Assembly: GCA_016196885.1 (NCBI GenBank)
Contig: JACPWU010000009.1
Coordinates: 1-32,000 of the forward strand
Origin: Chlamydiota bacterium
Lineage (GTDB): Bacteria; Auribacterota; JACPWU01
DNA: 32,000 nucleotides
Direction: 5' to 3'
Shown: positions 1 to 17,309 of the stretch, piece by piece
Layout of the letters: each line of letters begins with the position of its first letter
Position numbering within the stretch: the first letter of the stretch is position 1
Made by a program: the position numbers and the translations under genes
The notes under the pieces: model-generated
What the model was told of the DNA's origin: nothing
The model's input: only the letters and a program-made list of their open reading frames with translations
Database searches by the model: none

Positions 1-139
1 CTCCCATATAAAATTGCACGCCTTTTGATCTCTGATTTCACTTTTCTGTGCAATTCTACCACGCCCAATTCTATTCTTCTCTCCTTTTCTCCTTGTTTTA
101 TGCTGGTTTCGCCCTTTTGTCCCTTTTATCAGCAGACCC

Positions 140-376
140 TATCTATATGAATACGCAAACGATATTATCCCCATTGAAGTCAAAAGTGGTAAAAGTGGAA
201 CCTTGCGGAGTTTGCATCTCTTTTTAGCGGTCCATCCGGAGGCTCGTTATGGGATTCGATTTTCGTCTCATCCCTACTCCATCATTGATAAAATTGATTC
301 CAGACCCCTTTATGCAGTCGCTTCTTTGGCGCACGAAGATCAACGGGATAATTTACGAGCCCTGGCTAAACAATAA
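140..376 (+). pseudogene. C-terminal remnant of a DUF4143-type AAA ATPase (N-terminal ~300 aa missing)
   Basis: Frame 2 reads ...SRPYLYEYANDIIPIEVKSGKSGTLRSLHLFLAVHPEARYGIRFSSHPYSIIDKIDSRPLYAVASLAHEDQRDNLRALAKQ*. IPIEVKSG is the E-x-K part of the PD-(D/E)xK-like C-terminal module of AAA_14/DUF4143 ATPases. There is an in-frame TGA at 26-28, no P-loop region, and no start codon that gives a full-length product. Confidence 0.5.
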
Positions 377-377
377 A

Positions 378-515
378 CTTCAGATAATTCTCTATTATTC
401 AGAAGAACAATTGCACAAGGTATATCCCGAGATTGACGCTTTCTTTGCAACAAAAGAGAAATATGATCCGTCAGAGATTTTTGTGAATAAGTGGTATGAG
501 AAATACGCAAAATGA
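378..515 (+). pseudogene. possible C-terminal stump of an FAD-linked oxidase-type gene (tail of the 88-aa ORF 249..515)
   Basis: The tail LQIILYYSEEQLHKVYPEIDAFFATKEKYDPSEIFVNKWYEKYAK fits the YP....F......DP...F.N pattern at the extreme C-terminus of FAD-linked oxidases. The first 43 codons of the ORF overlap the ATPase stump in another frame and are unlikely to be coding. Confidence 0.25.
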
Positions 516-583
516 TTTTTTTATAATAAAATCCTTGCTTTTTTGTTTTTTTTGCTTCACACTGGAATCATAGATTTTTAGCG

Positions 584-767
584 AAATACCCTGCTATGTG
601 CGTAGGGAAGACAGATCTTTTAGCCAACAGCGACTAAAAAGGGAGCACTTCCTGGGTGATGGCTGGCAAGCCCGTAAGGGAAGCTAAAAGTCGTTCATAG
701 TGCGCCCACCTGATGAGGATAGCTCGCAAAAGATGTCTTTTCCACGGCAAGTGCGGGGTATTTTTTT
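584..767 (+). ncRNA. ssrS: structured ~185-nt RNA, 6S RNA-like
   Basis: The ends pair (aaataccctgc / gcggggtattt) and continue into a long irregular helix (gggaagacagatctttt / aaaagatgtcttttcc). Apical hairpins are cttcc...ggaag and ggct-ggca-agcc. There is an asymmetric internal loop on the 3' side, a T7 tract at 761-767, and no ORF. A 5-formyl-THF cyclo-ligase gene lies downstream, as in the classical ssrS-ygfA linkage. Confidence 0.45.
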
Positions 768-828
768 AAGGCAGAATTCAGAAGGCAGAATTCAGAAATC
801 AGAACAATAAGGATGTTATTTATTTTTT

Positions 829-948
829 AGGCATATGCACTTGACTCAAGTGTCGTCCATATGTAGTCGCCCCATTTATGGGGCCATGTATGGACTGCCC
901 GATAAATCGGGCGACTACGTTTGACGGTTGAGTCAAGTGCATAGGCCT
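829..948. repeat. 21-bp inverted repeats (20/21) forming a MITE-like shell around the REP doublet
   Basis: aggcatatgcacttgactcaa (829-849) versus ttgagtcaagtgcataggcct (928-948); the reverse complement differs at one position. Confidence 0.7.
863..918. repeat. REP doublet (REPIN-like), copy 1
   Basis: Two inverted 22-nt units, GTAGTCGCCCCATTTATGGGGC (863-884) and GCCCGATAAATCGGGCGACTAC (897-918), with a 12-nt spacer. Each unit is GTAG plus its own 5-bp/6-nt-loop hairpin. It is identical to the halves at 5905-5976. Confidence 0.75.
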
Positions 949-989
949 ATTATTTTTTATTCTGAATTCTGAGTTCTGGATTCTGTTTT

Positions 990-2342
990 ATGCAAACTCC
1001 TGATTTGTTCATACAAGAAGACCGCAAACCTTTCAAAATTTCTCATGATATGCCCTTGGCTTCTCGCATGAGACCTCGGAGGCTTGAGGAGTTTGTGGGG
1101 CAGGCCCATTTGATGGGGAAGGGAGAGGTTCTCGAGCGTCTCATTCATCAAGATGCCTTTGGCTCATTTATTTTTTACGGCCCTCCTGGAACGGGAAAAA
1201 CCACGCTGGCCCATTTGATTGCCCAAGTGTCACATCGTCGTTTCATACCCTTAAGTGCTGTCACTTCGAATGTGACGGATCTTCGCCGGGCCCTTGAGGA
1301 GGCCCGCAAATTCTTGAGTCGCGGGGAAAGAACGATTTTGTTTGTGGATGAGATCCATCGTTTTAACAAGGCCCAGCAGGATGTTTTGCTTCCTCACATT
1401 GAAAATGGAACCGTCGCTTTTATGGGAGCCACCACGCACAATCCTTTTTTCTCGATTGTGGCTCCCTTGGTGTCGCGCTCTCAGGTGTATCGGCTCAAGT
1501 CTCTCACCGTAGAAGAGGTTCGGAAAATCCTAGAAGCGGCTTTGAAGGATGAGGCGAGAGGCTTGGGGAAAAAGGGTTTGAAATTAGAGGAAGGTGTTCT
1601 GGAATATTTAGCCCATTTTTCTGAAGGCGATGCGCGACGGGCCTTGAATCTTTTAGAGATGTTGGATCAAATGCAATCCTCTGAATCAAAGGGACAGCCT
1701 CTTTCTAAAGAAATGGTTCTGAAACTGGTTCAAGAAAAACCCGTTCATTATGACTGGGATGAGGATGAACATTACGATACGATTTCGGCCTTTATCAAGA
1801 GTGTTCGGGGATCCGATCCGGACGCGGCGCTTTATTGGCTGGCCAAGATGCTGGAAGGGGGAGAGGATATTCTTTTTATTGCCAGGAGGCTTGTGATCTT
1901 GGCGAGTGAGGACATTGGGAATGCGGATCCTCAAGGACTGACCTTGGCAACTTCCTGTTTAAGAGCCGTGCAATTCATTGGACTTCCAGAGGCCAGAATT
2001 CCCTTGGCTCAGGCGACGGTGTATCTTGCCTGTGCCCCCAAAAGCAATGCGGCGTATCTTGCGATTGACAAGGCGCTAGAGGCCGTGCGGGAAAATAGGG
2101 TTCAGAAAGTGCCAGCGCATTTGAAAAATGTGAAGGCTCCAGATGAAAAGGGCTTCTCCTATCAATATTCGCATGATTTTGAAGGACATTTTGTGGAGCA
2201 GGATTATCTGGAAAGGCCACAAAATTTTCTTCAGTTGTCCGACAACGGTTACGAGCTTGAAATGGCAAAGAGGTTAAACGCATGGCGGAAGTATCCAAAG
2301 AAAACATTCGAAAAACCTTTCTCGAAGCCCGAAAAAATTTAA
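990..2342 (+). CDS. rarA: replication-associated recombination protein A (RarA/MgsA AAA ATPase)
   Basis: 450-aa ORF. N-terminal PLA.RMRP..L.EFVGQ.HL, Walker A GPPGTGKTTLA, VDEIHRFNKAQQD, and a C-terminal YDTISAFIKSVRGSDPDAALYWL block typical of RarA. Confidence 0.95.
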   Translation: MQTPDLFIQEDRKPFKISHDMPLASRMRPRRLEEFVGQAHLMGKGEVLERLIHQDAFGSFIFYGPPGTGKTTLAHLIAQVSHRRFIPLSAVTSNVTDLRRALEEARKFLSRGERTILFVDEIHRFNKAQQDVLLPHIENGTVAFMGATTHNPFFSIVAPLVSRSQVYRLKSLTVEEVRKILEAALKDEARGLGKKGLKLEEGVLEYLAHFSEGDARRALNLLEMLDQMQSSESKGQPLSKEMVLKLVQEKPVHYDWDEDEHYDTISAFIKSVRGSDPDAALYWLAKMLEGGEDILFIARRLVILASEDIGNADPQGLTLATSCLRAVQFIGLPEARIPLAQATVYLACAPKSNAAYLAIDKALEAVRENRVQKVPAHLKNVKAPDEKGFSYQYSHDFEGHFVEQDYLERPQNFLQLSDNGYELEMAKRLNAWRKYPKKTFEKPFSKPEKI

Positions 2343-2878
2343 GTGAAGATGAAAGGCGTTTTAAAAATCTCGCCATTCAGGAGCGATTTTTATCTTTGGA
2401 AATTTATCGAGCGGCGAAGAAGATTTTTTTTTATTGTTCCAAGTCAAGTGAGGTGGATACGCTTGTCTTAATTCAGGAGGCCTTGAAGGCGGGTAAAAAG
2501 GTAGCGCTTCCCCTTTGCCTCTCGAACGATCTTTTAGAGGCTCGATACATTGAGGATTTAGAAAGGGATTGTGAACGGGGCAATTTTGGCATCTTAAGCC
2601 CCAAGAAAAGCACTTTGAAAGCAGTGAAAGATGAGCTAGAGTGTTGGGTGATACCGGGGATCGCCTTCGATTTATCGGGGAATCGCCTGGGTTGGGGGAG
2701 GGGTTTTTTTGACCGATATTTGGCGGATTTGAAGCCGTCTCAGAAGAAAATCGCCTTGGTCTATGAAGTGCAGATTGCTCCGGCTCTCCCCGTGGATCTT
2801 CATGATGTCAAGATGGATGTGTTGGTGACAGAAAAAAGGGAAGTTTTTTTTAATCCAAAATCCAAAATCCAAAATTGA
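2282..2878 (+). CDS. 5-formyltetrahydrofolate cyclo-ligase
   Basis: 198-aa ORF. N-terminal K..IR....L..R..LS..ER pattern and the GWGRGFFDRYL motif. It overlaps rarA by 61 nt, and its last 8 codons are encoded by a tandem heptad repeat. Confidence 0.9.
   Translation: MAEVSKENIRKTFLEARKNLSEDERRFKNLAIQERFLSLEIYRAAKKIFFYCSKSSEVDTLVLIQEALKAGKKVALPLCLSNDLLEARYIEDLERDCERGNFGILSPKKSTLKAVKDELECWVIPGIAFDLSGNRLGWGRGFFDRYLADLKPSQKKIALVYEVQIAPALPVDLHDVKMDVLVTEKREVFFNPKSKIQN
2854..2874. repeat. tandem heptad (tccaaaa)x3 with no inverted partner
   Basis: Direct reading: tccaaaa tccaaaa tccaaaa, immediately before stop 2876-2878 and one nt before the rny ATG at 2880. Confidence 0.85.
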
Positions 2879-2879
2879 A

Positions 2880-4457
2880 ATGAGTGTATCTGAAATTTTA
2901 AAGAATCATTTGCCATGGGCGTTCTTGCTGACCTTGACGTCGGGCCTCTGGCTGGGCTATGCCTTGCGCTCATGGTTAGGGAGGTTGCGTCGAGGGAAGG
3001 CAGAAAAGGCGGCGGAGGAAATTCTTCAGGAGGCGGCTCTTCAGGCTCAGACCAGGCGCAAAGAGGCGGAGGTTGCGGCGAAGGAAGAATTTTTTAAGGC
3101 GAGGTCAGAGTTTGAGAAAGAGACGAAGGAACGGCGCCAAGAGATTTCGAATTTAGAAAAACGGGTGATCCAAAAAGAGGAAATGCTGGAGAAGAAATTA
3201 GAAGGCCTTGATCGAAAGGAAAATGATTTTCGTGCCAAAGAAAAATCTTTGAAAACGAAAGATGAAGAAATCGAGGCGAAGAAAAAAGAGTGGGAGGCCC
3301 TGATCGAAAAAGAGGGACTGCAGTTGCAGGACTTATCAGGCCTTTCTCGAGACGAGGCCCGTCACCAACTGCTTTCCAAGATCCAAGAGGAAGTTCAACA
3401 TGAAGCTGCCCTCGCCATTCGTCAGGCCGAAGCCCGCCTCCAGGAAGAAGTGGATCGGAAGGCCGGGTGGATGATTGTGAATGCCATGCAGCGCTGCGTG
3501 ATGGAGCATACCCAAGAGGCGACGGTAACGACGGTGTCTTTACCCAATGATGACATGAAGGGGAAAATTATTGGCCGCGATGGGCGCAACATTCGCACGT
3601 TTGAAGCTGCGACGGGCGTGGATTTAACCATTGATGATACGCCCGAGACCGTGGTGATTTCAGCTTTTGACATGGTGCGCCGCGAGATTGCACGTCTTTC
3701 TTTGGAGCAATTGATTCGAGATGGCCGTATTCATCCCGCCCGTATTGAAGAGGTGGTGGCCAAAGTAAAAAAAGAAATTGAAGAGACGATTCGGCAAGCA
3801 GGCGAGAAGGCGGTTTTTGAATTAGGGCTTACCGCTCTTCATCCTGAAGTCGTGAAGCTGGTCGGGCGTCTCAAATATCGAACGAGTTATGGTCAAAATG
3901 TGTTGGATCATTCGAAAGAGGTGGCCTGGCTGATGGGGGTGATGGCCTCTGAGATGGGAATGGATGTGAAGCTTGCCAGACGTGCGGGGCTTCTGCATGA
4001 CATTGGAAAGGCACTCAGCCATGAGGAGGAGGGGAGCCACGCCCTGATTGGGGGAGATTTGGCCCGTAAATATGGAGAGTCACCAGAGGTGATTGCAGGC
4101 ATTGCCGAGCATCATGGTGAGACGGAAGAGCAGACGGTGTGGGGGATTTTCACCCAGGTGGCGGACGCGATTTCTGCCGGGCGGCCGGGGGCAAGGTCTG
4201 ACACCGTTGGCAATTATTTGCAGCGATTGAATCAATTGGAGGAAATTGCAAATTCATTTCCGGGCGTGGAAAAAACTTATGCAATTCAAGCGGGTCGAGA
4301 ACTGCGCGTGATGGTGAAGCCTGGTGAAGTGAATGATGATGCGGCGCTTCTTCTCTCGAGAAATATCGCGCAAAAAATTCAGGGTTCTCTCCAATATCCG
4401 GGGGTGGTGAAAGTCACGGTCATTCGCGAAACACGAGCCGTTGAATTTGCGAGATAA
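2880..4457 (+). CDS. rny: ribonuclease Y
   Basis: 525 aa. N-terminal TM helix, long charged coiled coil, KH domain (GKIIGRDGRNIRTFEAATGVD), and HD domain (LLHDIGKA ... AEHHGE). Confidence 0.96.
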   Translation: MSVSEILKNHLPWAFLLTLTSGLWLGYALRSWLGRLRRGKAEKAAEEILQEAALQAQTRRKEAEVAAKEEFFKARSEFEKETKERRQEISNLEKRVIQKEEMLEKKLEGLDRKENDFRAKEKSLKTKDEEIEAKKKEWEALIEKEGLQLQDLSGLSRDEARHQLLSKIQEEVQHEAALAIRQAEARLQEEVDRKAGWMIVNAMQRCVMEHTQEATVTTVSLPNDDMKGKIIGRDGRNIRTFEAATGVDLTIDDTPETVVISAFDMVRREIARLSLEQLIRDGRIHPARIEEVVAKVKKEIEETIRQAGEKAVFELGLTALHPEVVKLVGRLKYRTSYGQNVLDHSKEVAWLMGVMASEMGMDVKLARRAGLLHDIGKALSHEEEGSHALIGGDLARKYGESPEVIAGIAEHHGETEEQTVWGIFTQVADAISAGRPGARSDTVGNYLQRLNQLEEIANSFPGVEKTYAIQAGRELRVMVKPGEVNDDAALLLSRNIAQKIQGSLQYPGVVKVTVIRETRAVEFAR

Positions 4458-4461
4458 AACA

Positions 4462-4556
4462 AGTTCAAAAGTTCAAAGGTTCAACGAAGGTTTAAAGGTT
4501 TAAAAGTTCAAAGGACTTCCCTCTTTTGAACCTTTGAACTTTTAAACCTTTAAACC
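4462..4556. terminator. octad-periodic hairpin (GTTYAAAR units) with a perfect 26-bp stem; putative terminator/processing site after rny
   Basis: 4489-4514 (ggtttaaaggtttaaaagttcaaagg) is the exact reverse complement of 4531-4556. The loop is 16 nt. Three more direct octads lie upstream (4462-4488), and the stem is followed by tgcttttct and ATG 4566. Confidence 0.7.
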
Positions 4557-4565
4557 TGCTTTTCT

Positions 4566-5783
4566 ATGCTAACACAAGAAAAAGTGAAAGTTTATACCGT
4601 CACCGAGCTGACTCGCGAGGTAAAGGCTGCTGTCGAAGGGACTTTCCCTTCTCTTTATGTGGAGGGAGAAGTGTCCAATGTCAAGATGCCCAGTTCCGGG
4701 CATCTTTATTTTACGCTCAAGGATGCCACATCCCAAATTCAGGCCGTGTTTTTTGCCTTTCGCTCGAAGGGGGTTTCTTTCACGCTTCAAGATGGGATGA
4801 AGGTGGTGCTGTTTGGATTTCTCACCGTTTATGAGAAGGGGGGAAATTATCAAATCAATGTGAAAAGGATGGAGCCTGCAGGAATGGGTGCCTTGCAGCT
4901 CGCCTTCGAGCAATTGAAGAAAAAGCTTTTGCAGGAAGGACTTTTTGATGCCAAACGCAAGCGCCCTATTCCCTGGGTCCCTTCAAAAATTGGAATTATC
5001 ACAAGTCCGACCGGCGCCGCTTTTCGAGATATTTTAAATGTGCTAGACCGACGGTTTTCAAATGTGCATCTTATCTTGGCTCCGACCTTGGTTCAAGGAG
5101 ATGGAGCGCCGTCGCAAATTGTGAGGGCGCTGGATTTGCTCAATGAAATGGACGAAGTGGACGTCATCATTGTCACGCGGGGCGGGGGGAGTCTGGAAGA
5201 TTTATGGGCTTTTAATGATGAAGGGGTGGCCAGGGCTATTTTTCAGTCTCGTATTGCGGTCATTTCTGCTGTGGGCCATGAAATTGATTGGACCATCGCC
5301 GATTTTGTTGCAGATTTAAGAGTGCCAACGCCGACTGCCGCCGCGGAACTTGTGATTACGAAGAAGTCAGATCTTTTGGAGACGCTCGTTCAGGCCAAAA
5401 AGAAAATGGTTCTTTTACTTTCGAATCGTGTGGGCTTTTTAAAGAAGGTCGTGGAAGGTTTTACCCAGCATCCTGTTTTTAAACGTCCTGGGGCCCGTCT
5501 AGAAATGTTATCTCAATCTCTGGATTTGGCGTTTGAACGATGCTCTCGGCAATTGATTCATCTTTTGGAGAGAAAGAAAGCGGCGCTTAAAACGCTCTCT
5601 ACGGGTTTGGATGCGCTCAGCCCTTTGGCTGTTTTAGGTCGGGGTTACAGCCTGACACGGATTTTGAAAACGCAGGCCATTCTTAAGAATGTGACACAAC
5701 TTAAAGTTGGAGAAGAAGTTGAGACTTTTCTTTCTAAAGGGAGTGTGGTGTCAGTTGTAAAGGACTTGAAAGTTACTCCATAG
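4566..5783 (+). CDS. xseA: exodeoxyribonuclease VII large subunit
   Basis: 405 aa. OB-fold N-terminus (VEGEVSNVK..SGHLYFTLKD) and core TRGGGSLEDLWAFNDE. Confidence 0.95.
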   Translation: MLTQEKVKVYTVTELTREVKAAVEGTFPSLYVEGEVSNVKMPSSGHLYFTLKDATSQIQAVFFAFRSKGVSFTLQDGMKVVLFGFLTVYEKGGNYQINVKRMEPAGMGALQLAFEQLKKKLLQEGLFDAKRKRPIPWVPSKIGIITSPTGAAFRDILNVLDRRFSNVHLILAPTLVQGDGAPSQIVRALDLLNEMDEVDVIIVTRGGGSLEDLWAFNDEGVARAIFQSRIAVISAVGHEIDWTIADFVADLRVPTPTAAAELVITKKSDLLETLVQAKKKMVLLLSNRVGFLKKVVEGFTQHPVFKRPGARLEMLSQSLDLAFERCSRQLIHLLERKKAALKTLSTGLDALSPLAVLGRGYSLTRILKTQAILKNVTQLKVGEEVETFLSKGSVVSVVKDLKVTP

Positions 5784-5904
5784 GTTTAGTAAAATTGCGG
5801 GGTTGTGTTCAACTGTGAAAAATGAGGTAACTCCCCCAACCCCTCTTGCTATGAAACATTCATGCCGACTGAGGTCGGCACAAAGGGGGATGAAAATCAC
5901 CCTT

Positions 5905-5976
5905 GTAGTCGCCCCATTTATGGGGCGGTCTATGACATTGGGGCATTGGGCATTGCCCGATAAATCGGGCGACTAC
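5905..5976. repeat. REP doublet (REPIN-like), copy 2
   Basis: The same two 22-nt GTAG-headed units as at 863-918 (5905-5926 and 5955-5976, both 22/22 identical) with a 28-nt spacer. Flanking ctt/aag extends the pairing. Confidence 0.75.
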
Positions 5977-6197
5977 AAGTCATCATGAGTCATTGTATAA
6001 GAACGGGTGGGGCTTTTATTGCATACGATGACCCCCAACAGGGTCATTGAAATGAAAAAATAAGAGGGGAGCTCCCTTTGTGTGATAGAAGGGTTTTTAG
6101 CCCTCCCCTTATTTCAAGCCCTTACAAGATTTTATAGTCCCCGCGGGATAGTCCCTGTGGGAAAGGGGAGTTGGAGGGGTTATGGTTGGAGGGAAAA

Positions 6198-6476
6198 ATG
6201 AAACAAAATTCAGGTTCTTTTGAAGAGGCCATGAAAAAATTAGAGGGGATTGTAGGCTTTCTTGAAAATGATGAGGTGAGCCTCGATGAGGCCTTAAAAA
6301 AATATGAAGACGGGGTCAAGCTCGTTCGATTCTGCACAAAAAAATTAGAAGAGGCAGAGAAGAAAATAGAGGTTTTAACGCGAGATGAAGAAGGAAAAGT
6401 GGTGAAGAAGCCTTTTATGGAAAAGAATGTTCGCGCTTCCAATAAGGGAGATGTTGAAGAGAGTTTGTTATTTTAA
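6198..6476 (+). CDS. xseB: exodeoxyribonuclease VII small subunit
   Basis: SFEEAMKKLEGIVGFLENDEVSLDEALKKYEDGVKLVRFC matches the XseB family. ATG 6198 is preceded by ggaggg. The ORF-track start 6171 is an upstream in-frame alternative. Confidence 0.9.
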   Translation: MKQNSGSFEEAMKKLEGIVGFLENDEVSLDEALKKYEDGVKLVRFCTKKLEEAEKKIEVLTRDEEGKVVKKPFMEKNVRASNKGDVEESLLF

Positions 6477-6490
6477 TCACAATTTAAAAA

Positions 6491-6562
6491 ATTTCCAATT
6501 TCCAATTAGACATTGCATCATTGGCGATTAATTTGTCATTGGTTATGGGTCATTTGTCATTA
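6491..6562. repeat. degenerate heptad-periodic inverted repeat (TTTCCAA / TGTCATT words) between xseB and dxs
   Basis: tttccaa tttccaa ttagaca ... tgtcatt ggttatg ggtcatt tgtcatt. ccaattagacatt (6502-6514) pairs 10/13 with aatttgtcattgg (6530-6542). It shares 12-nt words with the folC/rnc element. Confidence 0.5.
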
Positions 6563-6580
6563 GAGCGAAGGAGTTTTATC

Positions 6581-8488
6581 GTGTCCAAAATTTTAGAAAG
6601 AATCAATGGTTCACAAGATGTGAAAAGTCTTTCCATTTCTGAGTTGGAGATTCTCGCCAGTGAACTTCGCCAAGAAGTGCTTCGGGTGGTTTCCATCAAT
6701 GGGGGTCATGTCTCCAGCAATTTGGGTGTGGTGGAGCTGACCTTGGCGCTTCATTATGTGTTCAATACCCCTGCCGATAAATTGGTTTGGGATGTGGGTA
6801 ATCAAAGTTATCCGCATAAGCTCATCACGGGCCGTCGAGAGCCATTTCCCACTTTAAGAAAAATGAATGGGATTTCTGGATTCTGCAAAATCTCTGAAAG
6901 TCCTTACGACGCCTTTGGGGCGGGTCATGCCAGTACTTCTATTTCAGCGGCTTTAGGAATGGCGGTCGCTCGAGATGTCAGGGGCTCTGAGGAACGGGTG
7001 GTCGCAATCATTGGAGATGGGGCGATGACGGGCGGGATGGCCTACGAGGCCTTGAACAACGCAGGGGCGCTGAAAACAGATTTCCTTGTCATTTTAAACA
7101 CCAATGAAATGTCCATTGCCCCCAATGTGGGTGCCATTTCTCATTATGTGAATAAAGTGATTACGCATCCTCTCTACAACCGGGTCAAAGACGATTTGGA
7201 ACATTGGGTGGATCGGATTCCGGCGATTGGCCATCGGGTAGTGGAGACGGCGCATAAATTAGAAGAGAGCATTAAGAATTTGCTGGTTCCTGGAACTATT
7301 TTCGAGGGGCTGGGGTTTCGGTATTTTGGACCTGTGGAGGGTCATGATTTGGACGGCTTGATTAAAATTTTGAAAGACATCAAGGATTTGCACGGTCCCA
7401 TTCTCTTTCATGTGGTCACAAAAAAGGGAAGAGGTTACAAACCTGCAGAGGAGCGGCCGGATCAATTTCACGGCATGGGTCCTTTTGATTTGACAACCGG
7501 GAAGCCTTTAAAGGGATCTAGCGGAAAAAGTTTTTCCAATGCCTTCGGAGATGCCCTGTGGAGAGAGGCCGAAAAGGATCCTCGCATTGTAGCCATTACC
7601 GCAGCCATGCCATCGGGGACGGGCCTTGCAGAATTTGCCAAGCGTTATCCCAAACGATTTTTTGATGTGGGCATTGCCGAAGAGCATGCCGTCACTTTTG
7701 CGGGAGGCCTCGCAGCTCAAGGGCTAAAACCCGTGTTGGCGATTTATTCCACTTTTCTCCAGAGGGGATTCGATCAGGTGCTTCATGATGTCTGTCTTCA
7801 AAATTTACCCGTGATTTTTGGGATTGATCGAGCCGGGGTGGTGGGGGATGATGGACCCACGCATCAAGGCGTTTTTGACATCTCTTATTTAAGGCCCATT
7901 CCAAATTTAAAGATTGTTCAAGCTCGAAATGAAGCTACCCTGAAGACCATTTTGAAATGGGCGCTTCATGAAGAGGGGCCGGTCGCGATTCGTTATCCTC
8001 GCGGCAATGTACGCGAGGGTCTGGGGGATGACACGTGCCGGCCTTTAGATCAAGGGGGAGTGGATGTGGTGAGGAAGGGAAAAGACGTTGCGATTTTGGC
8101 CCTGGGGGACATGGTGTACATGGGATTAGAGGTGGCTGCCCTTTTAGAAAAGGATGGGATTTCGACACAGGTCATAGACGCTCGGTTTATCAAACCCCTC
8201 GATGAAGTTTTTCTCGAGAGGCTTTCGAAGGGGATCACGAAGTGGATCACTTTAGAGGATCATGTTTTGGCCGGCGGATTTGGAAGTGCGGTCCTTGAAT
8301 TTTTACAGGCCCGAAAAATTTCTGTGGAATTCATTCGGTTGGGCCTTCCGGATGTTTTTATTGAACAGGGTGTGCGTGAAAAGGTTTGGGAAGGCTTTGG
8401 TTTGTCAGCGCCTTTGATTGTCCAGAGAATTAAAAAAGAATTTGTAAAGGCTGTTTCTTCTACTGAAAAGATAGCGTACAGCGTCTAG
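6581..8488 (+). CDS. dxs: 1-deoxy-D-xylulose-5-phosphate synthase
   Basis: TPP-binding GDGAMTGGMAYEALNNAG plus transketolase-like pyrimidine-binding and C-terminal domains. I placed the start at GTG 6581 (aaggag ends 8 nt upstream). The ORF-track TTG 6521 start would translate the hairpin repeat. Confidence 0.95.
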   Translation: MSKILERINGSQDVKSLSISELEILASELRQEVLRVVSINGGHVSSNLGVVELTLALHYVFNTPADKLVWDVGNQSYPHKLITGRREPFPTLRKMNGISGFCKISESPYDAFGAGHASTSISAALGMAVARDVRGSEERVVAIIGDGAMTGGMAYEALNNAGALKTDFLVILNTNEMSIAPNVGAISHYVNKVITHPLYNRVKDDLEHWVDRIPAIGHRVVETAHKLEESIKNLLVPGTIFEGLGFRYFGPVEGHDLDGLIKILKDIKDLHGPILFHVVTKKGRGYKPAEERPDQFHGMGPFDLTTGKPLKGSSGKSFSNAFGDALWREAEKDPRIVAITAAMPSGTGLAEFAKRYPKRFFDVGIAEEHAVTFAGGLAAQGLKPVLAIYSTFLQRGFDQVLHDVCLQNLPVIFGIDRAGVVGDDGPTHQGVFDISYLRPIPNLKIVQARNEATLKTILKWALHEEGPVAIRYPRGNVREGLGDDTCRPLDQGGVDVVRKGKDVAILALGDMVYMGLEVAALLEKDGISTQVIDARFIKPLDEVFLERLSKGITKWITLEDHVLAGGFGSAVLEFLQARKISVEFIRLGLPDVFIEQGVREKVWEGFGLSAPLIVQRIKKEFVKAVSSTEKIAYSV

Positions 8489-8555
8489 CGTTTAGCGTAT
8501 AGAAAAAATAAATATTCCTTTCTGACCATCCGCTAACCGCTCCACGCTGTCCGCT
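8473..8555. repeat. heptad-periodic hairpin (AGCGTNN x4 / complementary arm), AGCGTAC family
   Basis: The left arm 8473-8502 (agcgtac agcgtct agcgttt agcgtat ag) pairs with the right arm 8526-8555, about 24/30 complementary. The left arm overlaps the dxs stop, and the right arm ends 8 nt before the tlyA ATG. Confidence 0.7.
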
Positions 8556-8563
8556 CAGGTCTC

Positions 8564-9301
8564 ATGCCTAAAAAAATTCGTATAGATCTCCTTCTGGTTG
8601 ATCGCCAATTTTTCCCAAGTCGCACCGATGCTCAGAAGGCCATTCTGGCTGGTTTTGTGAAGGCGTCTTCTCAGTTGGTTCACAAATCCAATGAGCTTTT
8701 CGATCCGGAGGTCCCCATTGAAATTTTGGCAAAGAGGCGTTATGTCAGCCGAGGGGGAGAAAAATTAGGAGGGGCCCTTGAATCTTTTTCCATTTCTGTT
8801 GCCGGAAAGACGTGTTTGGATGTAGGGGCATCTCATGGGGGCTTTACCGATTGCCTCCTTCAGCACGGGGCCGAAAAGGTGTATGCGGCAGATGTGGGAT
8901 ATGGGCAGTTGGATGTTTCTTTGAGGCAAAATCCAAAAGTAATCGTTCTTGAGAAAGTGAATGCCCGTTATTTTAAGGCAACAGATTTTCCCGAGAAAAT
9001 GGATTTGGCCACCGTTGATGTTTCTTTTATCTCGCTTGAAAAGATTTTGCCGGCTTTGATTCCGCTTCTTAAAGAGGAGGGCGTCGTTCTTGCCTTGGTG
9101 AAACCTCAATTTGAAGTAGGAAAGGGTCGTGTAGGCAAGGGCGGTGTGGTTCGAAGTGAAAAGGACAGATTAGAAGCAGTTGAGAAGGTGAAGAATTTTG
9201 GAATGGCCCTGGGGTTAAAATATTTGGGGACAGAAACTTCGACTCTCAAGGGCCCGGCGGGGAATGTGGAGTATTTTATTTATTTTCGTATTTTCATGTA
9301 A
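8564..9301 (+). CDS. tlyA: TlyA-family rRNA 2'-O-methyltransferase
   Basis: S4-like N-terminus (RIDLLLVDR...SR..A...I..G.V) plus an FtsJ-type methyltransferase domain (CLDVGASHGGFTDCLLQHGA). Confidence 0.92.
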   Translation: MPKKIRIDLLLVDRQFFPSRTDAQKAILAGFVKASSQLVHKSNELFDPEVPIEILAKRRYVSRGGEKLGGALESFSISVAGKTCLDVGASHGGFTDCLLQHGAEKVYAADVGYGQLDVSLRQNPKVIVLEKVNARYFKATDFPEKMDLATVDVSFISLEKILPALIPLLKEEGVVLALVKPQFEVGKGRVGKGGVVRSEKDRLEAVEKVKNFGMALGLKYLGTETSTLKGPAGNVEYFIYFRIFM

Positions 9302-9554
9302 TACGTCTACGTCTTTTGGGCAAATTTTGGTAAAAGTGAAATTTAGCCAATTCGAGTTGCGCGGTAACAACAGGACGATTCAGTTGCCAATCTCCTAAAA
9401 ACAAAAATTTCTTTGCCTCAGACTTGGTTTCATTTAGAAATCGGACATCATCCAGCAAAAAGAAAACTCAACTATAAAAAGCTCACTTATTTCTGAAAAA
9501 TCTTATGTCACATCTGCCCCAGTATTGTATGATATCCCCTTGGAGATGCTCTCA

Positions 9555-10172
9555 ATGGGTAGAATGAAGTTGATTCTTTTGGGTATGGGATTTGTTCTAT
9601 TTTTGGGTTTTTTCCCAAATCAGGTTTTCCCAGAAAAGGAAAGAATGATGAAAAAAGCGACATTTGCAGCCGGGTGTTTTTGGGGGGTGGAGAAGATTTT
9701 CGCGCAGTTGCCGGGCGTGGTTTCGACACGCGTCGGGTATTCGGGGGGAAATAAGCCTAACCCCACCTATGAACAAGTATGCATGGGAAACACAGGGCAT
9801 GCGGAGGCGATGGAAGTTACTTATGACCCTTCAAAGATTTCTTATGAGGAACTTCTCATCACTTTTTGGCAATATCACGATCCGACCACGCTCAATCGGC
9901 AGGGACCTGATCGGGGAAGCCAATACCGCTCCGTCATTTTTTATCACGATGAAGACCAAAAGGCAGCCGCCCAAAAATCCAAAGAGATTTTAGAGAGAGA
10001 AAAGGTTTTCAAGAATTCCATCGTGACGGAGATTGTTCCCGAGCAGCCTTTTTATCAAGCGGAAGAATATCACCAACAATATCTGAAGAAAAATCCGGGA
10101 GGGTATTGCTCTGGCCATCTACAGTCAGACCGGATTGAAGAGGTGTTAAAAGTCGTGGTTCGTCGTTCGTGA
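9555..10172 (+). CDS. msrA: peptide-methionine (S)-S-oxide reductase MsrA with a hydrophobic N-terminal (export/anchor) segment
   Basis: GCFWGVE active-site motif, and [16 protein letters not shown] ahead of the catalytic domain. The start is ambiguous (TTG 9525, ATG 9555 with ggag 9 nt upstream, ATG 9564). Confidence 0.9.
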
Positions 10173-10236
10173 AACGTATTTCGTTAAAGGAATTTTGCTT
10201 ATAAACGAGTGACGGTTCGCGAAATACGAACGACGG
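10152..10236. terminator. heptad-periodic inverted repeat between convergent msrA and the anti-sigma gene; putative bidirectional terminator
   Basis: A 10-bp perfect core (cgtcgttcgt at 10161-10170 with acgaacgacg at 10226-10235) plus alternative registers (cgtatttcg / cgaaatacg). T4 tracts flank it on both strands. The left arm overlaps the msrA stop. Confidence 0.6.
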
Positions 10237-10239
10237 CTT

Positions 10240-11064
10240 TTAAGAAATGACTTCATTCCCAGCCAGAGTTGCCAAATCCTCCACTTCATTTTGTTTCATG
10301 CGGCCCACGAAGACGCAGAGGTTCTGACCGTTTCTAAAAATGATGATTTTATAAGGCGGAACTCTGTAAAAATAATAATAAACATGTCTTCCCCGAACCA
10401 CTCTTTTTAAATTTTCTGGAAAATCGATGGCCGGATCTTTCAGAATAAAATGAGATAGTTGATGAGAGCCTCTGAAATAAAGAATCGTGGCAATAGGTTG
10501 TCCAGAGATGCGTTCGCCAGAGGCAAGACAAATGCTTCGAGGTGCATATCCTAATTTTTCCAAATTGTAATGAGAGATGTAAATGCCGGATTTCTGTGAG
10601 AAAAAAGCGCGTGCCCTTTCAAGATTTTCGTTGAACCCTCTTGGCATTTGCGAAGAAATTCCGCCATTTAAAAATTGTTTGTGGAGCTCAACAGATTGAT
10701 TGACCAGGGTATCGGCATTGAGCTTCTGAGGCCAGATGAAATAATAAGAGAGGGTGGCAACCAAGGTTAAGGTGGCTGCAATGGCAGAGCCCCAGATGAC
10801 AAGGTGTCTTCTCAAATCAAAGAAGTGAAGGATTTTCGCTCGAGGTGTGAGAAGGGGAGGTCTTATCTTTTCCCAAAGAACTTCAGGGACACTTGATTTC
10901 TTTAATTTTTCTTTGAAGAATTCTTGTAATTGTTTCTCGCCTTCAAAGAATTCGCTGCACGACGGACATAAGTCTAAATGGGTCAGGATTTCAAGATTTT
11001 CTTGAACGCCCAGCTCATTGTCTAAAAAGAGATAGAGTTGAAGTTTTGCCTCAGGACATTTCAT
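10240..11064 (-). CDS. membrane-anchored zinc-binding (ZAS-type) anti-sigma factor
   Basis: C3-x25-H29-x3-C33-x2-C36 (THLDLCPSC), one TM helix (VIWGSAIAATLTLVATLSYYFIW), and a ~150-aa extracytoplasmic domain. It has a 4-nt ATGA overlap with the upstream sigma gene. Confidence 0.85.
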   Translation of the reverse strand: MKCPEAKLQLYLFLDNELGVQENLEILTHLDLCPSCSEFFEGEKQLQEFFKEKLKKSSVPEVLWEKIRPPLLTPRAKILHFFDLRRHLVIWGSAIAATLTLVATLSYYFIWPQKLNADTLVNQSVELHKQFLNGGISSQMPRGFNENLERARAFFSQKSGIYISHYNLEKLGYAPRSICLASGERISGQPIATILYFRGSHQLSHFILKDPAIDFPENLKRVVRGRHVYYYFYRVPPYKIIIFRNGQNLCVFVGRMKQNEVEDLATLAGNEVIS

Positions 11065-11636
11065 GGCTTCACCTTGCCCTCCTGGGGGCGAACGATGCCT
11101 CTTTCCTTTGCATAAGAGAAAAGTTCTTCTTTTAAGAATTTTCGGGCCCTGAAAAGTCGAGACATCACGGTCCCGATGGGGCAGCCTACCACTTCGGAGA
11201 TTTCTTGATATGAAAAATCTTCTACCGTTGCCAAAAGAAAAACGAGACGATATTCTGGAGGCAAATGATCCAGGGCAACGCTTACTTCGTCTTCTACTTG
11301 GTCACGCAAAAGTTCAATTTGGTCCAATGAGAAAGAAGGCTGTTCTTTGACAATTTCTTCATAAATGGGTTCCACCGTCGAGAAATCGGTGAGGGGTGGC
11401 TCTTTCGATTTTTTGCGGTATTGGTTGATATAGGTATGGGTCATGATTTTAAAGATCCACGCCTTAAAATTTGTTCCTTTCTCAAATTTGTCGTAGTTGC
11501 GAAAGGCCTTCAAAATAGCCTCTTGAACGAGGTCTTTAGCATCAGCCTCATTGCGAGTCATTCGTAAGGCTGTGTGATACAATGGATTAAAATGTTCTTG
11601 GATCAGTGTCTCAAATTCTTGCATGGAAATCTCCAC
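11061..11636 (-). CDS. ECF-type RNA polymerase sigma-70 family factor
   Basis: Region 2 (DAKDLVQEAILKAFRNYDKF) and region 4 HTH (SYQEISEVVGCPIGTVMSRLFRARKFL). Confidence 0.92.
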   Translation of the reverse strand: MEISMQEFETLIQEHFNPLYHTALRMTRNEADAKDLVQEAILKAFRNYDKFEKGTNFKAWIFKIMTHTYINQYRKKSKEPPLTDFSTVEPIYEEIVKEQPSFSLDQIELLRDQVEDEVSVALDHLPPEYRLVFLLATVEDFSYQEISEVVGCPIGTVMSRLFRARKFLKEELFSYAKERGIVRPQEGKVKP

Positions 11637-11717
11637 TTAATGAAACAAAAAAAGAAGGGGATTTATTTCTCATAGTTTAATGGGTTTTAAGGTTTTTATC
11701 TCTTGTTTTTTACAATT

Positions 11718-11748
11718 GACTTACGACTCATAACGATCGACTCACGAC
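11718..11748. repeat. orphan single arm of the GTCGTGA heptad family (ACTNACG-type heptads)
   Basis: gacttacgactcataacgatcgactcacgac is homologous to the right arm at 15991-16015, including the junction to the start codon. No complementary arm lies nearby. Confidence 0.6.
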
Positions 11749-11755
11749 TGTTTTT

Positions 11756-14700
11756 ATGACACATCCGATTCTTAAAAATCTTCATTTTTTCGAAGAGGTC
11801 TTGAAAAAGGTCCACGAGGGTTCTCGCATTCAGATGAGTGGCCTTTGGGATTCTTCCAAGGCGGCCTTGGCAGCTTGTCTTGCGGATCATTTCCAAAAAC
11901 GGATTCTGGTGGTGACTCCAGGATTGGGAGAAGCCGAGAGATTCTATCGGGATTTTTCTTTTTTTTCTGGAATCTCATGCCACCTTTTCCCCGCTTGGGA
12001 AACCTTGCCGCATGAGAATGTGACCCCTCATGTGGATATTGTAGGAGAGCGCTTTGGGACCCTGATGACCCTTTTAGAATCCGAAAGACCTGAATGCGTC
12101 ATCGCCCCTGTCGAGACGCTGCTCTGGAAAATTCCTAGCCCAGAGTCATTTAAAAAAATGATTTTAAATTTATCTTGCGGGGATGAAATTCCTTTGCGCT
12201 TTTTAATGGAGCGTCTTGTAGAGCTGGGTTATTCCAGAGGGGCTGTGGTGGAAGAGAAGGGCCGTTTTGCAGTGAGGGGTGGCATTCTCGATTTTTATTC
12301 TCTGCAAGAGGATTTTCCCTACCGGGTGGAATTCGAGGCTGATCGCATTGTTTCTTTGAGGGTTTTTGATCCTCAGAGTCAGGTTTCTTTGAAACAAGTA
12401 GAACGGGCCAAGATTTTGCCTGCCTTTGAGTTGGAATTAAGACAAAAGAAAAATTTATCATGGGGAAATCTTTCGGATTTTTTTTCAAGTGATTTTTTGC
12501 TCGTCTTGGATGAGGCCGCAAATATTTTTGAAAAGGCGCAATCTCTGGAGAGGGCAAGCGATTTTGGGGTTAAGGTGTTGAAAAATCCCAGAGGTCTTGA
12601 GTTTTATCTTTCTGAGATGGAAGGGCCAGGGGGTGATGAAAAGATGGAGCGAATGGCTTTTTCTATCCAGAGGTCTTGTTCTTGGGAAGATTTGAGAGTA
12701 GAAAATTTGAACGAGGAATGGGGTGATCATCCTCTGCGAATTTTTTCAAAAATCGGCGAGAAGACGCGAGAGGGATTTCACATTTATTTTGTGGTGAAGA
12801 AAGAGGCAGAAGGAGAGAGGCTGAAGGAACTTCTTCAGGAGAAGAAGATGTGGAAAGAAGCCGTGCACCATGTTGTGGTCGGGGACCTTTCAAGGGGCTT
12901 TGTACTTCCCCTTGAAAAAAAGGCCATTCTTACCGACGAAGAAATTTTTGGGAGATTGAGGGTGCGTCCCGTTCGGACAAAGGTTCGTAAAAGTCTTCCC
13001 GTCCAGGAATATTCCCAGTTTGAGGTGGGAGACTGTGTGGTGCATGGGGTGCATGGGATTGCAAGATATCGGGGGGTGAGTCGTAACAGTCAGGGGAAGC
13101 GGGGAGAATATTTAACTTTGGAATATGCGAATCAGGCCAAGCTTTATGTTCCGGTGGATCAAATTGAACTGGTGGAGCGTTACATTGGGATCAAGGGGCA
13201 GGTCCCGCGGTTGAGCCGCTTGGGTCGGGGGGAGTGGGAACGCTCGAAGAAAAAGGCCGAAGGGGCGATTCACGATTTTGCGGCGGAGCTTCTGGATCTC
13301 CAGGCCAAACGCGAGGCTTTGGGGGGCTACGCCTTTGGGCGTGATACGCCATGGCAGAACGAGTTTGAGGCTTCCTTTATTTATGAAGAGACACCGGACC
13401 AATGGCAGGCGATTGAGGAGGTGAAGCGGGATCTGGAATCTCCTCAACCCATGGACCGCTTGGTTTGCGGCGATGTGGGGTATGGGAAAACGGAGGTGGC
13501 CATTCGGGCGGCTTTTAAGGTGGTGATGGAGGGAAAACAAGTCGCCATCCTTGTTCCGACAACGGTTTTAGCGCAGCAGCATCTTTACACATTTCAGGAG
13601 CGATTTTCGGGATATCCGATTCAGGTGGAAATGCTCTCGCGGTTTCGCAGCGAGTCTGAGCAGGGGAAAATCTTAAAGGACTTGAAAGAAGGAAAATTAG
13701 ATGTGGTGATTGGGACGCATCGCCTTTTAAATCAAGATGTGGTTTTTAAAGATTTGGGGTTGCTGGTGATTGATGAAGAACAGCGCTTCGGTGTTTTCGC
13801 CAAAGAAAAATTAAAGAAGATGAGGATTTCGGTGGATGTTTTAACGCTGAGTGCAACCCCCATCCCTCGGACCCTCTATTTGTCTTTGATGGAGGCCAAA
13901 GACATGAGCCTCATCATGACCGCACCTCAAAATCGCTTGCCCATAGAAACAGTTCTGGCGGCCTATGATGACCAGATGGTTCGAGATGCCATTGTTCGGG
14001 AAGTGGCGAGGGAAGGGCAGGTGTTTTTCATCCACAATCGTGTGGGAAGCATTTATCGCATGAAGGAAAGGCTCGAAAAATGGGTTCCGGGTGTTCATTT
14101 TGAAGTGGCGCATGGCCAAATGCCAGAGGATGAATTGGAAGAGGTGATGAAAAATTTTATAGAGGGGAAAATTCAGGTATTGGTTTCAACCAATATTGTA
14201 GAGTCGGGTCTTGATATCCCGAATGCGAATACCATTATCATAGATCGCTCAGAACATTTTGGGTTGGCGGATCTTTATCAATTGAGGGGACGGGTGGGGC
14301 GTCTCCATCGCAGGGCCTATGCCTATTTGCTTTATTCTCGAAATGGGATTTTGACGAAGGATGCCAAGCTCCGGCTAAAAACCATTGAGGACTTTAAGGA
14401 GCTGGGCTCTGGATTTAAGGTGGCCATGCGGGATTTGGAGATTCGAGGAGCTGGAAATATTCTGGGGCGAGCGCAGCATGGGCAAATTTCGGCCGTTGGA
14501 TTTGGACTTTATTGCCGGTTGCTGCAGGCTTCCATTCGTCGGATCAAAAAAGAGGAAGTGAAGGAACGCCACCCCGTGGGCTTGCAATTGGGGTTGGACC
14601 TCACTTTGCCGCCAGAGTATATTCCAGATGATTCTTTGAGACTGCAAATGTATCGCAAGATTTTTGAAGTGGACTCTTCGCAAAAATTGGTCCAGGTGTC

Positions 14701-15936: not shown

Positions 15937-15939
15937 AAA

Positions 15940-16015
15940 CAGTCGTGAGTCGTGAGGGATGAGTCGTGAGTAAAAAATAACTCCTTTAAAACTCACGACC
16001 CACGACCCACAACTG
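15940..16015. repeat. heptad-periodic hairpin, GTCGTGA family
   Basis: The left arm 15940-15971 is cagtcgt gagtcgt gagggat gagtcgt gagt. The right arm 15991-16016 (actcacgacccacgacccacaactgt) has one heptad fewer. There is a 9-bp perfect apical stem, then about 13/15 pairs after a one-heptad bulge. It is followed by tcttt and ATG 16021. Confidence 0.75.
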
Positions 16016-16020
16016 TCTTT

Positions 16021-17016: not shown

Positions 17017-17111
17017 GTTCTATTCATAAATTCTGACAGTACTAAGGATAAAAAGGTTAAAAACCATAACCAGAAATATTATTCATGTAGGGTGGGATAT
17101 GGCCTCCTTAG

Positions 17112-17297: not shown

Positions 17298-17309
17298 TAA
17301 GTTACGTTT

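Follow-up and report, generated by a model that had tools for sequence, protein, structure and literature searches.

The question raised by this locus is what the hairpins built from tandem 7- or 8-nt words are and why they occupy its intergenic spacers. The locus comprises the first 32,000 nt of contig JACPWU010000009.1 (GenBank assembly GCA_016196885.1; hereafter the window) and comes from a metagenome-assembled genome (MAG) of a groundwater chlamydia-like bacterium labelled Chlamydiota. The exemplar hairpin lies between the RNase Y gene (rny) and xseA and had been singled out in an earlier note made from the sequence alone. The window hairpins belong to a kind of element that has already been described piecemeal in other bacteria, with its function proposed only, and that is now found in Chlamydiota. 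On balance, we lean towards regarding them as palindromic simple repeats of the repetitive extragenic palindromic (REP) or short tandemly repeated repetitive (STRR) type, grown by slippage at the 3' ends of transcribed genes, with an RNA stem that would act as a barrier or coupler. Part of their origin can be read directly from the comparisons below; the rest, and any effect on RNA, we infer.

The exemplar hairpin (4462–4557) consists of two octad arms and a loop.

4463–4514, plus strand: left arm, six GTTYAAAR octads with a 3-nt insertion in the third; lag-8 self-match of 0.71, reached in 0 of 2000 shuffles
4515–4530, plus strand: loop GACTTCCCTCTTTTGA
4531–4557, plus strand: right arm, four YTTTRAAC octads, which pair with 4488–4514

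The left arm begins 5 nt past the rny stop codon (4455–4457) and reads GTTCAAAA GTTCAAAG GTTCAACGaag GTTTAAAG GTTTAAAA GTTCAAAG over residues 4463–4512. The right arm terminates 8 nt ahead of the xseA ATG (4566). The six left-arm octads and the perfect complementarity between 4489–4514 and 4531–4556, both described in the earlier note, are present, and the complementarity is exact; the full perfect stem spans 27 bp (4488–4514/4531–4557). The RNA fold has a predicted energy of −39.9 kcal/mol and a z-score of −5.65 relative to dinucleotide shuffles (RNAfold). At 27 bp, the perfect stem would be of sufficient length for cleavage by RNase III. The RNase Y gene (rny, 2880–4457) adjoins this hairpin, and the RNase III gene (rnc, 24952–25860, minus strand) adjoins another one at 24870–24950, which may be a coincidence.

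The periodicity of the arms was assessed with a lag-p self-match detector across the window, using 100 dinucleotide shuffles as the control. The detector found 15 arrays, of which 10 have a 7-nt period, four an 8-nt period and one a 6-nt period, and the shuffles yielded 1.27 ± 1.07 arrays overall (0.27 for period 7 and 0.13 for period 8). The 14 observed arrays of period 7 or 8 therefore stand against 0.4 expected, an excess of ∼35-fold, and no enrichment over the shuffles was detected in the window at periods 5, 6, 9 and 10. Tandem Repeats Finder concurred with the detector on the window arrays. The comparison of hairpin-arm periodicity with shuffled sequence, which had been proposed along with the exemplar, thus places the window far above its shuffles. 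Twelve of the 14 hairpin arms exceeded all 2000 shuffles of their own sequence in lag-7/8 self-match; the other two are the right arms at 10203–10237 (52/2000) and 24922–24950 (603/2000). The tandem 7/8-nt periodicity is beyond chance. The NCBI MAG contig and an independent Logan assembly give the same sequence, and the hairpins are therefore not an assembly artefact.

In addition to the exemplar, the window contains six two-arm hairpins and several single-arm arrays.

770–804, plus strand: left arm of hairpin 770–985, NNCAGAA x5, directly 3' of the 6S RNA gene
959–985, plus strand: right arm of the same hairpin, ATTCTGA x4, with its end 4 nt upstream of the rarA ATG (990)
8472–8555, plus strand: dxs–tlyA hairpin, YAGCGTN x4.4, a loop starting AAAAAATAAATATTCCTTT and NNCCGCT x4; z = −5.2
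10152–10237: hairpin of the convergent msrA/anti-sigma pair, TTCGTNN-type heptads with A-run and T-run flanks; z = −6.7
15941–16013, plus strand: surA–pdxA hairpin, AGTCGTG x4.4, loop AAAAAATAACTCCTTTAAAA and ACNCACG x3.3; z = −4.6
22578–22660, plus strand: gatB–accD hairpin, YAGCGNN x4.4 and CTGNNCG x4.3; z = −7.3
24870–24950: hairpin of the convergent folC/rnc pair, left arm of AATGTGCC octads; z = −3.3
2852–2878, plus strand: single-arm AATCCAA x3.4, inside MTHFS at its 3' end; the array stops 1 nt short of the rny ATG
11716–11750, plus strand: weak single-arm GACTNAC, reaching to 5 nt from the mfd ATG in a divergent spacer; 7/2000 shuffles
23523–23561, plus strand: AT-rich single-arm AATTAAN in the accD–folC spacer
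6490–6561, plus strand: two unrelated single-arm period-7 arrays, AATTTCC x2.6 and GTCATTN x4, in the xseB–dxs spacer

The list of recurrences given in the earlier note thus held for the six further two-arm hairpins and for three single-arm arrays (2852, 11716 and 23523), each of which has a significant period of 7, but not for 6491–6562. This segment, which had been grouped with the AGCGTNN hairpins, lacks AGCGT and folds no better than its shuffles (z = +0.35). Fold z-scores range from −3.3 to −7.3 for six two-arm hairpins, the exemplar included. The seventh, at 770–985 (NNCAGAA/TTCTGNN), was folded at −113.2 kcal/mol, a value not compared with shuffles. Its arms enclose 154 nt with two nested palindromes, one of which is a GTAG-tagged REP doublet. 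The right arm of 24870–24950 pairs with the left arm without a periodicity of its own.

The hairpins share a common architecture. They are imperfect palindromes of 75–100 nt, or 215 nt where other palindromes nest inside, with stems of 25–35 bp and moderate GC content and loops of 10–25 nt. Each stem is a series of 5–7-bp helices split by 1x1 or 2x2 mismatches at the degenerate heptad positions; in 22578–22660, 6-bp helices alternate with 1x1 mismatches, ((((((.((((((.((((((. An A-run on one side and a T-run on the other prolong the pairing of most window stems. All seven two-arm hairpins lie 3' of a gene or RNA end. The constant placement claimed for them, over the upstream stop and up to the next start, was also observed. 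The dxs (8486–8488) and msrA (10170–10172) stop codons are in the third heptads of their left arrays, the gatB stop (22578–22580) is the first TAG of its array, and the folC open reading frame (ORF) spans the entire left arm up to its stop at 24904–24906. The right arms finish 4–13 nt ahead of the next start codon.

The arms carry signs of growth by slipped-strand or tandem duplication. The exemplar has six octads on the left versus four on the right and offers alternative pairing registers (inverted-repeat pairs I3, I5, I10, I16 and I21). In the left arm at 768–797, a perfect 14-nt duplication of two units has no counterpart in the right arm. Together with the turnover of words at the site after rny described below, these features support the growth by duplication that had been proposed from the exemplar. 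Each heptad unit has a 5-nt core and 1–2 variable positions; the variants cluster by phase (P = 0.013). The phase clustering was considered as proof of a recognised 5-nt core and rejected, as it is mostly explained by 14-nt block duplications.

The window was compared with relatives. It encodes an RNase Y identical to MBI3265702 ('Chlamydiae bacterium') from MAG contig JACOUD010000075.1 (GCA_016178005.1); this protein cluster represents a single organism, found in two assemblies from the same sample. No RNase Y with more than 59% identity was found in species-representative genomes or JGI metagenome contigs. The nearest relatives exhibit 63–68% RNase Y identity, and three of them were fetched at 66–68% (L161, L163 and L165). 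The gene order rarA-MTHFS-rny-xseA-xseB-dxs-tlyA-antisigma-ECF sigma is kept in all three, and the spacers differ in length.

rny–xseA spacer: 23–59 nt in the relatives, 108 nt in the window
xseB–dxs spacer: 14–19 nt in the relatives, 104 nt in the window
dxs–tlyA spacer: 18–44 nt in the relatives, 75 nt in the window

No periodic hairpin was seen in L165; L163 carries a single one, after rny, and L161 one in the tlyA/antisigma spacer plus some arrays. Since the short spacers of the relatives (14–60 nt) contain few or no periodic hairpins, most of the window hairpins were gained in the lineage of the window, where they entered formerly tight operon spacers. The site after rny differs in each of the four genomes: an octad hairpin in the window, a single-arm GGAGTNN array in L161, a GAANNAN hairpin (z = −3.3) in L163 and nothing in L165. 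These differences reflect rapid local turnover at this site. The L161 array (11535–11566, GGAGTNN x4.5 after the rny stop) contains 4–5 GGAG motifs resembling the Shine–Dalgarno (SD) sequence at 7-nt spacing, 20–50 nt before the xseA start; it has no complementary arm and is unstructured (z = +1.7). In the dxs–tlyA hairpin, the first two heptads encode the dxs C-terminus EKIAYSV*, which aligns with EKNLAISG* and EKDFAFSG* of the relatives, and the array therefore merges into native sequence without an insertion boundary. Elsewhere more than 99.97% identical to the window, JACOUD010000075.1 (L081) differs at 5676–6004 by a rearrangement or indel of ∼126 nt around a REP doublet, which alters the called xseA C-terminus (405 versus 385 residues) and probably reflects a difference between assemblies or strains at the repeat.

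Four of the seven hairpins are related to one another. The dxs–tlyA (8472–8555) and gatB–accD (22578–22660) hairpins are ∼84% identical over the upstream flank, the left arm and the start of the loop, with a local alignment score of 38 versus a shuffle maximum of 17, and are homologous as judged from this alignment. These two hairpins, 15941–16013 and 10152–10237 (minus strand) have xxCGTxx words in common (AGCGT, GTCGT and TTCGT). A loop core, A5-6TA...YTYCCTTT, is located at 8503–8520, 15972–15986 and 10187–10196 (minus strand, AAAATTCCTTT); the 22578–22660 loop, AAAAACACAATTCCTGA, only nearly fits it (near match at 22609–22625). The same core occurs in one hairpin of L161 (∼16010–16035, minus strand), whose RNase Y identity is 68%. 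By their shared words and loops, the four hairpins are one dispersed family. The words of the other three (NNCAGAA, GTTYAAAR and ATGTGCCA) are unrelated to this family and to one another. The statement that the word differs by locus thus applies to the three hairpins with private words and fails for the four homologous ones. A regular expression for the loop core matches 16 times in the window versus 13.8 expected; the motif is not rare, and only its concentration in loops is unusual. The core resembles the 3' end of 16S rRNA (anti-SD), and its complement resembles a ribosome-binding site. A role as an anti-SD mimic or reverse-strand ribosome-binding site was rejected because no start codon follows on the reverse strand and the expression is not rare.

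A survey of 740 spacers from other rny loci of other phyla placed the window hairpins in a broader context. A spacer was counted as positive when it contained a period-7/8 array with at least 14 minimum-free-energy pairs involving the array. This applied to 7.5% of the real spacers versus 0.5% of shuffled ones. By label, the proportion was 1.6% in Bacillota, 10.3% in Desulfobacterota or 'delta', 22% in Omnitrophota/Auribacterota and 31% in this window. Periodic hairpins are present in 15 of 36 Desulfobacterota-labelled loci. Among the ∼150 other rny loci fetched, the architecture of the window was also found in Auribacterota and in unlabelled metagenome contigs.

Desulfobacterota-labelled MAGs with the same architecture: L011, L012, L014, L016, L020, L039, L041, L090 and L097
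Omnitrophota with the same architecture: L008 and L017 (the latter a complete chromosome)

The survey hairpins are confined to spacers that contain a gene 3' end. They were found in none of 117 divergent spacers, 46 of 510 co-directional spacers and six of 113 convergent spacers (0/117 versus 52/623; Fisher p = 2e-4); within positive loci, the counts were 0/44 divergent versus 52/205 others (p = 2e-5). Across 51 co-directional cases, the hairpin starts at a median of 4 nt past the upstream stop, overlaps that stop in 43% and ends at a median of 13 nt before the next start. The preferred spacer is the one immediately downstream of rny, with hairpins in 18 of 73 loci as against 34 of the 667 other spacers (odds ratio 6.1, p = 3e-7), and the word after rny is different in nearly every lineage. 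In Bacillota, the same position is occupied by an ordinary GC hairpin with a T-run terminator. New here are the rule on position that spans phyla, the complete lack of these hairpins from divergent spacers and their concentration just downstream of rny. More weight can be placed on the direction of these results than on the p-values, because ORFs were called crudely and the lineages are not independent. A heptad-periodic hairpin was noted right after the rny stop in L008, L011, L012, L014, L016, L017, L020, L039, L041, L083, L085, L087, L090, L097, L128 and L163, as in the window (4458–4565). In Desulfobacterota-labelled loci, heptad hairpins were also seen by eye beside apparent rRNA or tRNA genes (L016, 15962–16036 and 19300–19391; L020, 16155–16230 and 19510–19592; L041, 16055–16133; L014, 19423–19496), with the words AAGCTCA, AAGGTNN and AGGCNNG; one is located just upstream of an apparent 5S gene.

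Selection on the RNA fold was examined on the premise that mismatches in a selected fold favour G.U on the transcribed strand. A first test, in which 27 of 38 cases were more stable on the sense strand (p = 0.012), was discarded because the hairpins had been chosen by sense-strand folding and the result was biased accordingly. With strand-symmetric Watson–Crick ascertainment, the sense preference was gone (18 versus 15, p = 0.6–0.7), and the outcome within the window was mixed. The lack of a strand preference is expected for young palindromes that arise at the DNA level. Three further candidate signals were set aside. A G- or purine-rich 5' arm (G>C in 16/20; purine-rich in 13 versus 4) does not indicate the direction of transcription, as the bias holds on both strands of a palindrome and the lineages are not independent. 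A HutP- or TRAP-like NAG-N4 reading of the AG-containing heptads conflicts with several words without AG, and nothing points to a protein of this type. Promoters in the AT-rich loops were sought by inspection, which found no convincing -35/-10 pair, and by a consensus scan of positions 1–20000, which listed none in the loops covered.

These observations can be combined into a model in which slippage-grown palindromes settle at gene 3' ends. Replication slippage or tandem duplication would add or remove units in each arm independently, and a periodic arm could re-pair in a shifted register, so that changes in unit number would be nearly neutral and stems could lengthen. Some copies would be dispersed to new sites, giving the xxCGTxx family with its conserved loop core, and elements would persist only where no promoter is destroyed. 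In the lineage of the window, most of the gains would be recent. The element would be transcribed with its flanking genes into an RNA stem of 25–35 bp that extends from at or near the upstream stop to 4–13 nt before the next start. Such a stem would stand in the way of 3'-to-5' exonucleases and may cause RNA polymerase to pause or, in part, to terminate. The folded RNA would keep the stop and the next start adjacent, and an insertion of 90 nt need not break translational coupling; this adjacency would explain why the junctions accept insertions only if they are palindromic. De novo initiation at the downstream start could become dependent on a ribosome reaching the upstream stop, which is consistent with the scarcity of SD-like motifs at the genes concerned. 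These motifs precede two of nine genes that follow a hairpin or array versus nine of 14 others (p = 0.09), a difference that is only suggestive. The periodicity would then be a mutational signature and not a recognition code.

Several points weigh against this model. Only one strain is represented, and unit-number polymorphism is therefore presumed; co-transcription, RNA folding in vivo and the effects on decay and translation are likewise presumed. Without a G.U strand bias, there is no positive evidence for selection on RNA structure. The enrichment downstream of rny is not explained by a neutral model, and the survey behind it depends on the crude ORF calls. The conserved loop core and the words shared with L161 (AGCGTAC and AAATCCA, which recur there at 68% RNase Y identity) are not expected from pure local slippage and hint at recognition by some factor.

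The placement of the hairpins and the runs around them would also suit Rho-independent terminators, bidirectional at the convergent pairs and periodic only incidentally, an explanation that we regard as unlikely. An A-run upstream and a T-run downstream bracket the window stems (CTTTTAA after 10237, TTTTTA after 24950 and GTTTT after 985), with 3–5 T following most of them, hairpins are located at both convergent gene pairs and right after the 6S RNA gene, none is found in divergent spacers and the corresponding Bacillota position carries a classical terminator. However, TTTT occurs within 10 nt after the stem in only 14% of the 51 co-directional cross-taxon cases. The T-run right before an ATG is also seen at genes without a hairpin. 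The stems of 25–35 bp and loops of 10–25 nt depart far from the norm of a GC-rich stem of ∼5–14 bp and a loop of 3–8 nt, which bears out the earlier note in setting these hairpins apart from ordinary intrinsic terminators. A consensus terminator scan called none of the five hairpins within the region covered (1–20000). Finally, the next start is only 4–13 nt away, leaving no room for a promoter, and the 14–20-nt spacers of the relatives at the same junctions imply operons. Comparably improbable is an origin as non-autonomous mobile elements resembling miniature inverted-repeat transposable elements (MITEs) or REP doublets forming hairpins (REPINs), in which the heptads would be subterminal enzyme-binding repeats and slippage secondary. 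The pair of copies with ∼84% identity including the flanks, the loop core conserved across loci and two genomes, the lineage-specific presence at otherwise conserved junctions, the REP-like distribution (PMC3733652) and the coexistence of GTAG-tagged REP doublets, one nested in the 770–985 loop, are in line with mobility. They are countered by the lack of target-site duplications, terminal tags and defined ends among the hairpins, by the gradation of the 8472–8555 array into the dxs coding end, by the private words of most hairpins, with only one ∼84% pair, and by the absence of a transposase gene or a gene for a REP-associated tyrosine transposase (RAYT) from the window.

Two readings assign the hairpins a recognised role. 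The less probable one, which we consider the weakest of all those weighed here, treats the heptads as iterated docking sites of a protein that recognises a specific DNA or RNA sequence, with a global regulator, IHF/HU, S1, Csp and a HutP/TRAP-like ring protein as candidates; the inverted arms would then be two platforms. Earlier work put forward binding at the paired sites of Geobacter (PMC2700814), the TAACTGA repeats of Beggiatoaceae (PMC4679880) and the heptamers of Nostoc (bioRxiv 10.1101/2022.06.06.494920), and the 5-nt core with its phase-clustered variable positions, the single-arm arrays just upstream of starts, the fit of ATTCTGA (959–985) to the Geobacter class 3 consensus MTYCTGA and the recurrence of AGCGTAC and AAATCCA in L161 would agree with it. 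The seven hairpins in 32 kb nevertheless represent at least four unrelated word families, the word has changed completely at one orthologous site, and the phase clustering comes largely from 14-nt block duplications. Periodic hairpins are missing from the divergent spacers, where promoters lie, the binding of iterons needs no complementarity between arms, and no candidate binding protein is encoded beside the hairpins. It is only slightly less doubtful that periodic hairpins are selected intercistronic control elements across phyla, with the placement after rny as a feedback or processing site for the main mRNA-decay nuclease and a recognised loop core (A-run ... YTYCCTTT). If this were true, the stem would set the survival of the upstream message and the coupling of the downstream gene, and the gain or loss of 7-nt units would retune operon stoichiometry over short evolutionary times. 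The placement downstream of rny would be conserved in Chlamydiota, Omnitrophota and Desulfobacterota, and the hairpin might be cut by RNase III or RNase Y.

The window contains further features near or apart from the periodic hairpins. The 6S (SsrS) RNA gene (585–763, plus strand; Rfam RF00013, 79.5 bits) is followed by rarA and the 5-formyl-tetrahydrofolate (THF) cyclo-ligase gene, a neighbourhood that recalls the ssrS–ygfA linkage of Escherichia coli, and hairpin 770–985 starts 7 nt past it. Only 6S RNA passes the Rfam gathering threshold in the window. The heptad hairpins match no Rfam family, and at permissive E-values they yield only chance sub-threshold matches to eukaryotic miRNA-precursor models. 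Many starts lack an SD-like motif and have a T-run right before the start codon (for example, TGTTTTATG, GTCTTTATG and CGTTTATG), as in the start regions of rarA, xseA, mfd, pdxA, AAA14, gatB and folC. The GTAG-tagged REP doublet exists in two copies, at 858–923 and 5902–5979 (GTAGTCGCCCCATTTATGGGGC ... GCCCGATAAATCGGGCGACTAC), with the REPs proper at 863–918 and 5905–5976. The first copy is nested in a further palindrome (828–854/923–949) within the 770–985 loop, and the loop of the second holds a small CATTGGG heptad array (5936–5955). A palindromic family, CCCAGCAAGGAAGGCTGCA, with three copies and no heptad periodicity, is located at 28282–28342 and 28373–28424 between HlyD-like and ABC ATPase genes, where it forms a perfect palindrome with 30-nt arms and an inverted repeat with 52-nt arms. 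Other non-periodic palindromes lie at 17258–17317 (29-nt arms, 79%; upstream of an AAA_14/DUF4143 ATPase gene) and 31750–31824 (36-nt arms, 78%; near the window end).

The periodic hairpins were compared with systems described elsewhere. The earlier note had not recognised them as a described element class, which did not stand: the same architecture is present in filamentous cyanobacteria, the Nostoc trnL intron, Xanthomonas and Geobacter. No long simple repeat is more common in bacteria than heptamers, a prevalence attributed to polymerase slippage (Mrazek 2007, as cited in PMC4679880 and PMC4692102). In filamentous cyanobacteria, STRR heptamer hairpins lie between hupS and hupL, where transcript stabilisation or translational coupling has been proposed (PMC2670836), and the P6b hairpin of the Nostoc trnL intron is composed of degenerate heptanucleotides (PMC3488679). 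The likeness to the window extends to degenerate 7-nt units in both pairing arms, intergenic location, length variation through copy number and small elements inside the stem-loop (PMC2670836, PMC3488679). The cyanobacterial arrays had been named as the nearest analogy; the likeness holds but was understated, as STRRs are the same kind of thing. The window differs in that it comes from a Chlamydiota MAG and not a cyanobacterium, contains octads besides heptads and has hairpins that fill the spacer from stop to start. The STRR1–3 words (CCCCAGT, TTGGTCA and CAACAGT) differ from those of the window. None of these three words forms an array in the 32-kb window, where at least four unrelated word families are found. 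Because the words and the phylum differ, the window hairpins are not strict STRR members.

REPs, bacterial interspersed mosaic elements (BIMEs) and REPINs resemble the window hairpins as imperfect palindromes near ORF 3' ends in transcribed extragenic DNA, with patchy, lineage-specific abundance and proposed roles in mRNA stabilisation or termination (PMC3733652, PMC3116915). REPs are distributed 3' of genes (PMC3733652), and the periodic hairpins share this location, with gene 3' ends occupied and divergent spacers avoided (0/117 versus 52/623). REPs have non-periodic 5–13-bp stems, a conserved sequence, a terminal tag and a RAYT, whereas the heptad hairpins are 3–4 times longer, periodic, untagged and mostly private; related copies within the window number four (the xxCGTxx family), and no RAYT is encoded there. 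Since they lack the tag, are much longer and are periodic, the heptad hairpins are not REP members. By analogy, they may work like both STRRs and REPs.

In Geobacter metallireducens, paired tandem octa- or heptanucleotide sites on opposite strands number 24, 21 and eight, with one pair at proB–proA, and the consensus words of the classes, GTTGCTYN, TCTCCGTS[Y] and MTYCTGA, were read as regulator or IHF/HU sites (PMC2700814). These sites resemble the window hairpins as inverted pairs of 3–5 tandem 7–9-nt units at variable distance, with several word classes per genome; the authors' reading involves no hairpin or RNA, and binding is their hypothesis (PMC2700814). The Geobacter sites form alignable families of 16–48 by nucleotide BLAST, unlike the window loci with their mostly private words. 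The right-arm word ATTCTGA (959–985), which fits Geobacter class 3, has CTGA in common with the Beggiatoaceae TAACTGA, a likeness that could reflect convergence or chance. The TAACTGA repeats of Beggiatoaceae, cyanobacteria and Bacteroidetes are tandem heptamers a few nt before starts, comparable with the single arms at 2852 and 11716 and in keeping with the low SD frequency of the window (2/9 versus 9/14), but they use one fixed word, are nearly always direct (169 direct sets and one indirect) and form no hairpin (PMC4679880). Xanthomonas genomes contain 70–75 convergent inverted pairs of GGGAATC arrays each, which, like the Nostoc GGGGAYT repeats, share with the window the intergenic heptamers, the pairs capable of forming a stem-loop and the extensive differences in length and sequence within one spacer between close relatives (PMC4692102). 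Xanthomonas uses one G-rich word genome-wide, studied as a G-quadruplex former, and the window words are not prone to form G-quadruplexes.

Inverted heptamer pairs have thus been noted separately in cyanobacteria, Xanthomonas and Geobacter as a stem-loop, a G-quadruplex and a regulator site. In practice, such hairpins extend ORFs (dxs, msrA and folC), confuse start and stop calls and break short-read assemblies. If the positional rule, by which hairpins use only spacers containing a gene 3' end and stretch between the stop codon and a point shortly ahead of the following start, holds genome-wide, the choice between a mutational by-product and an operon-tuning device becomes testable. The comparison suggests that the cyanobacterial, Xanthomonas, Geobacter and window pairs are one phenomenon, spanning at least four phyla, with one positional rule and a hot spot after rny.

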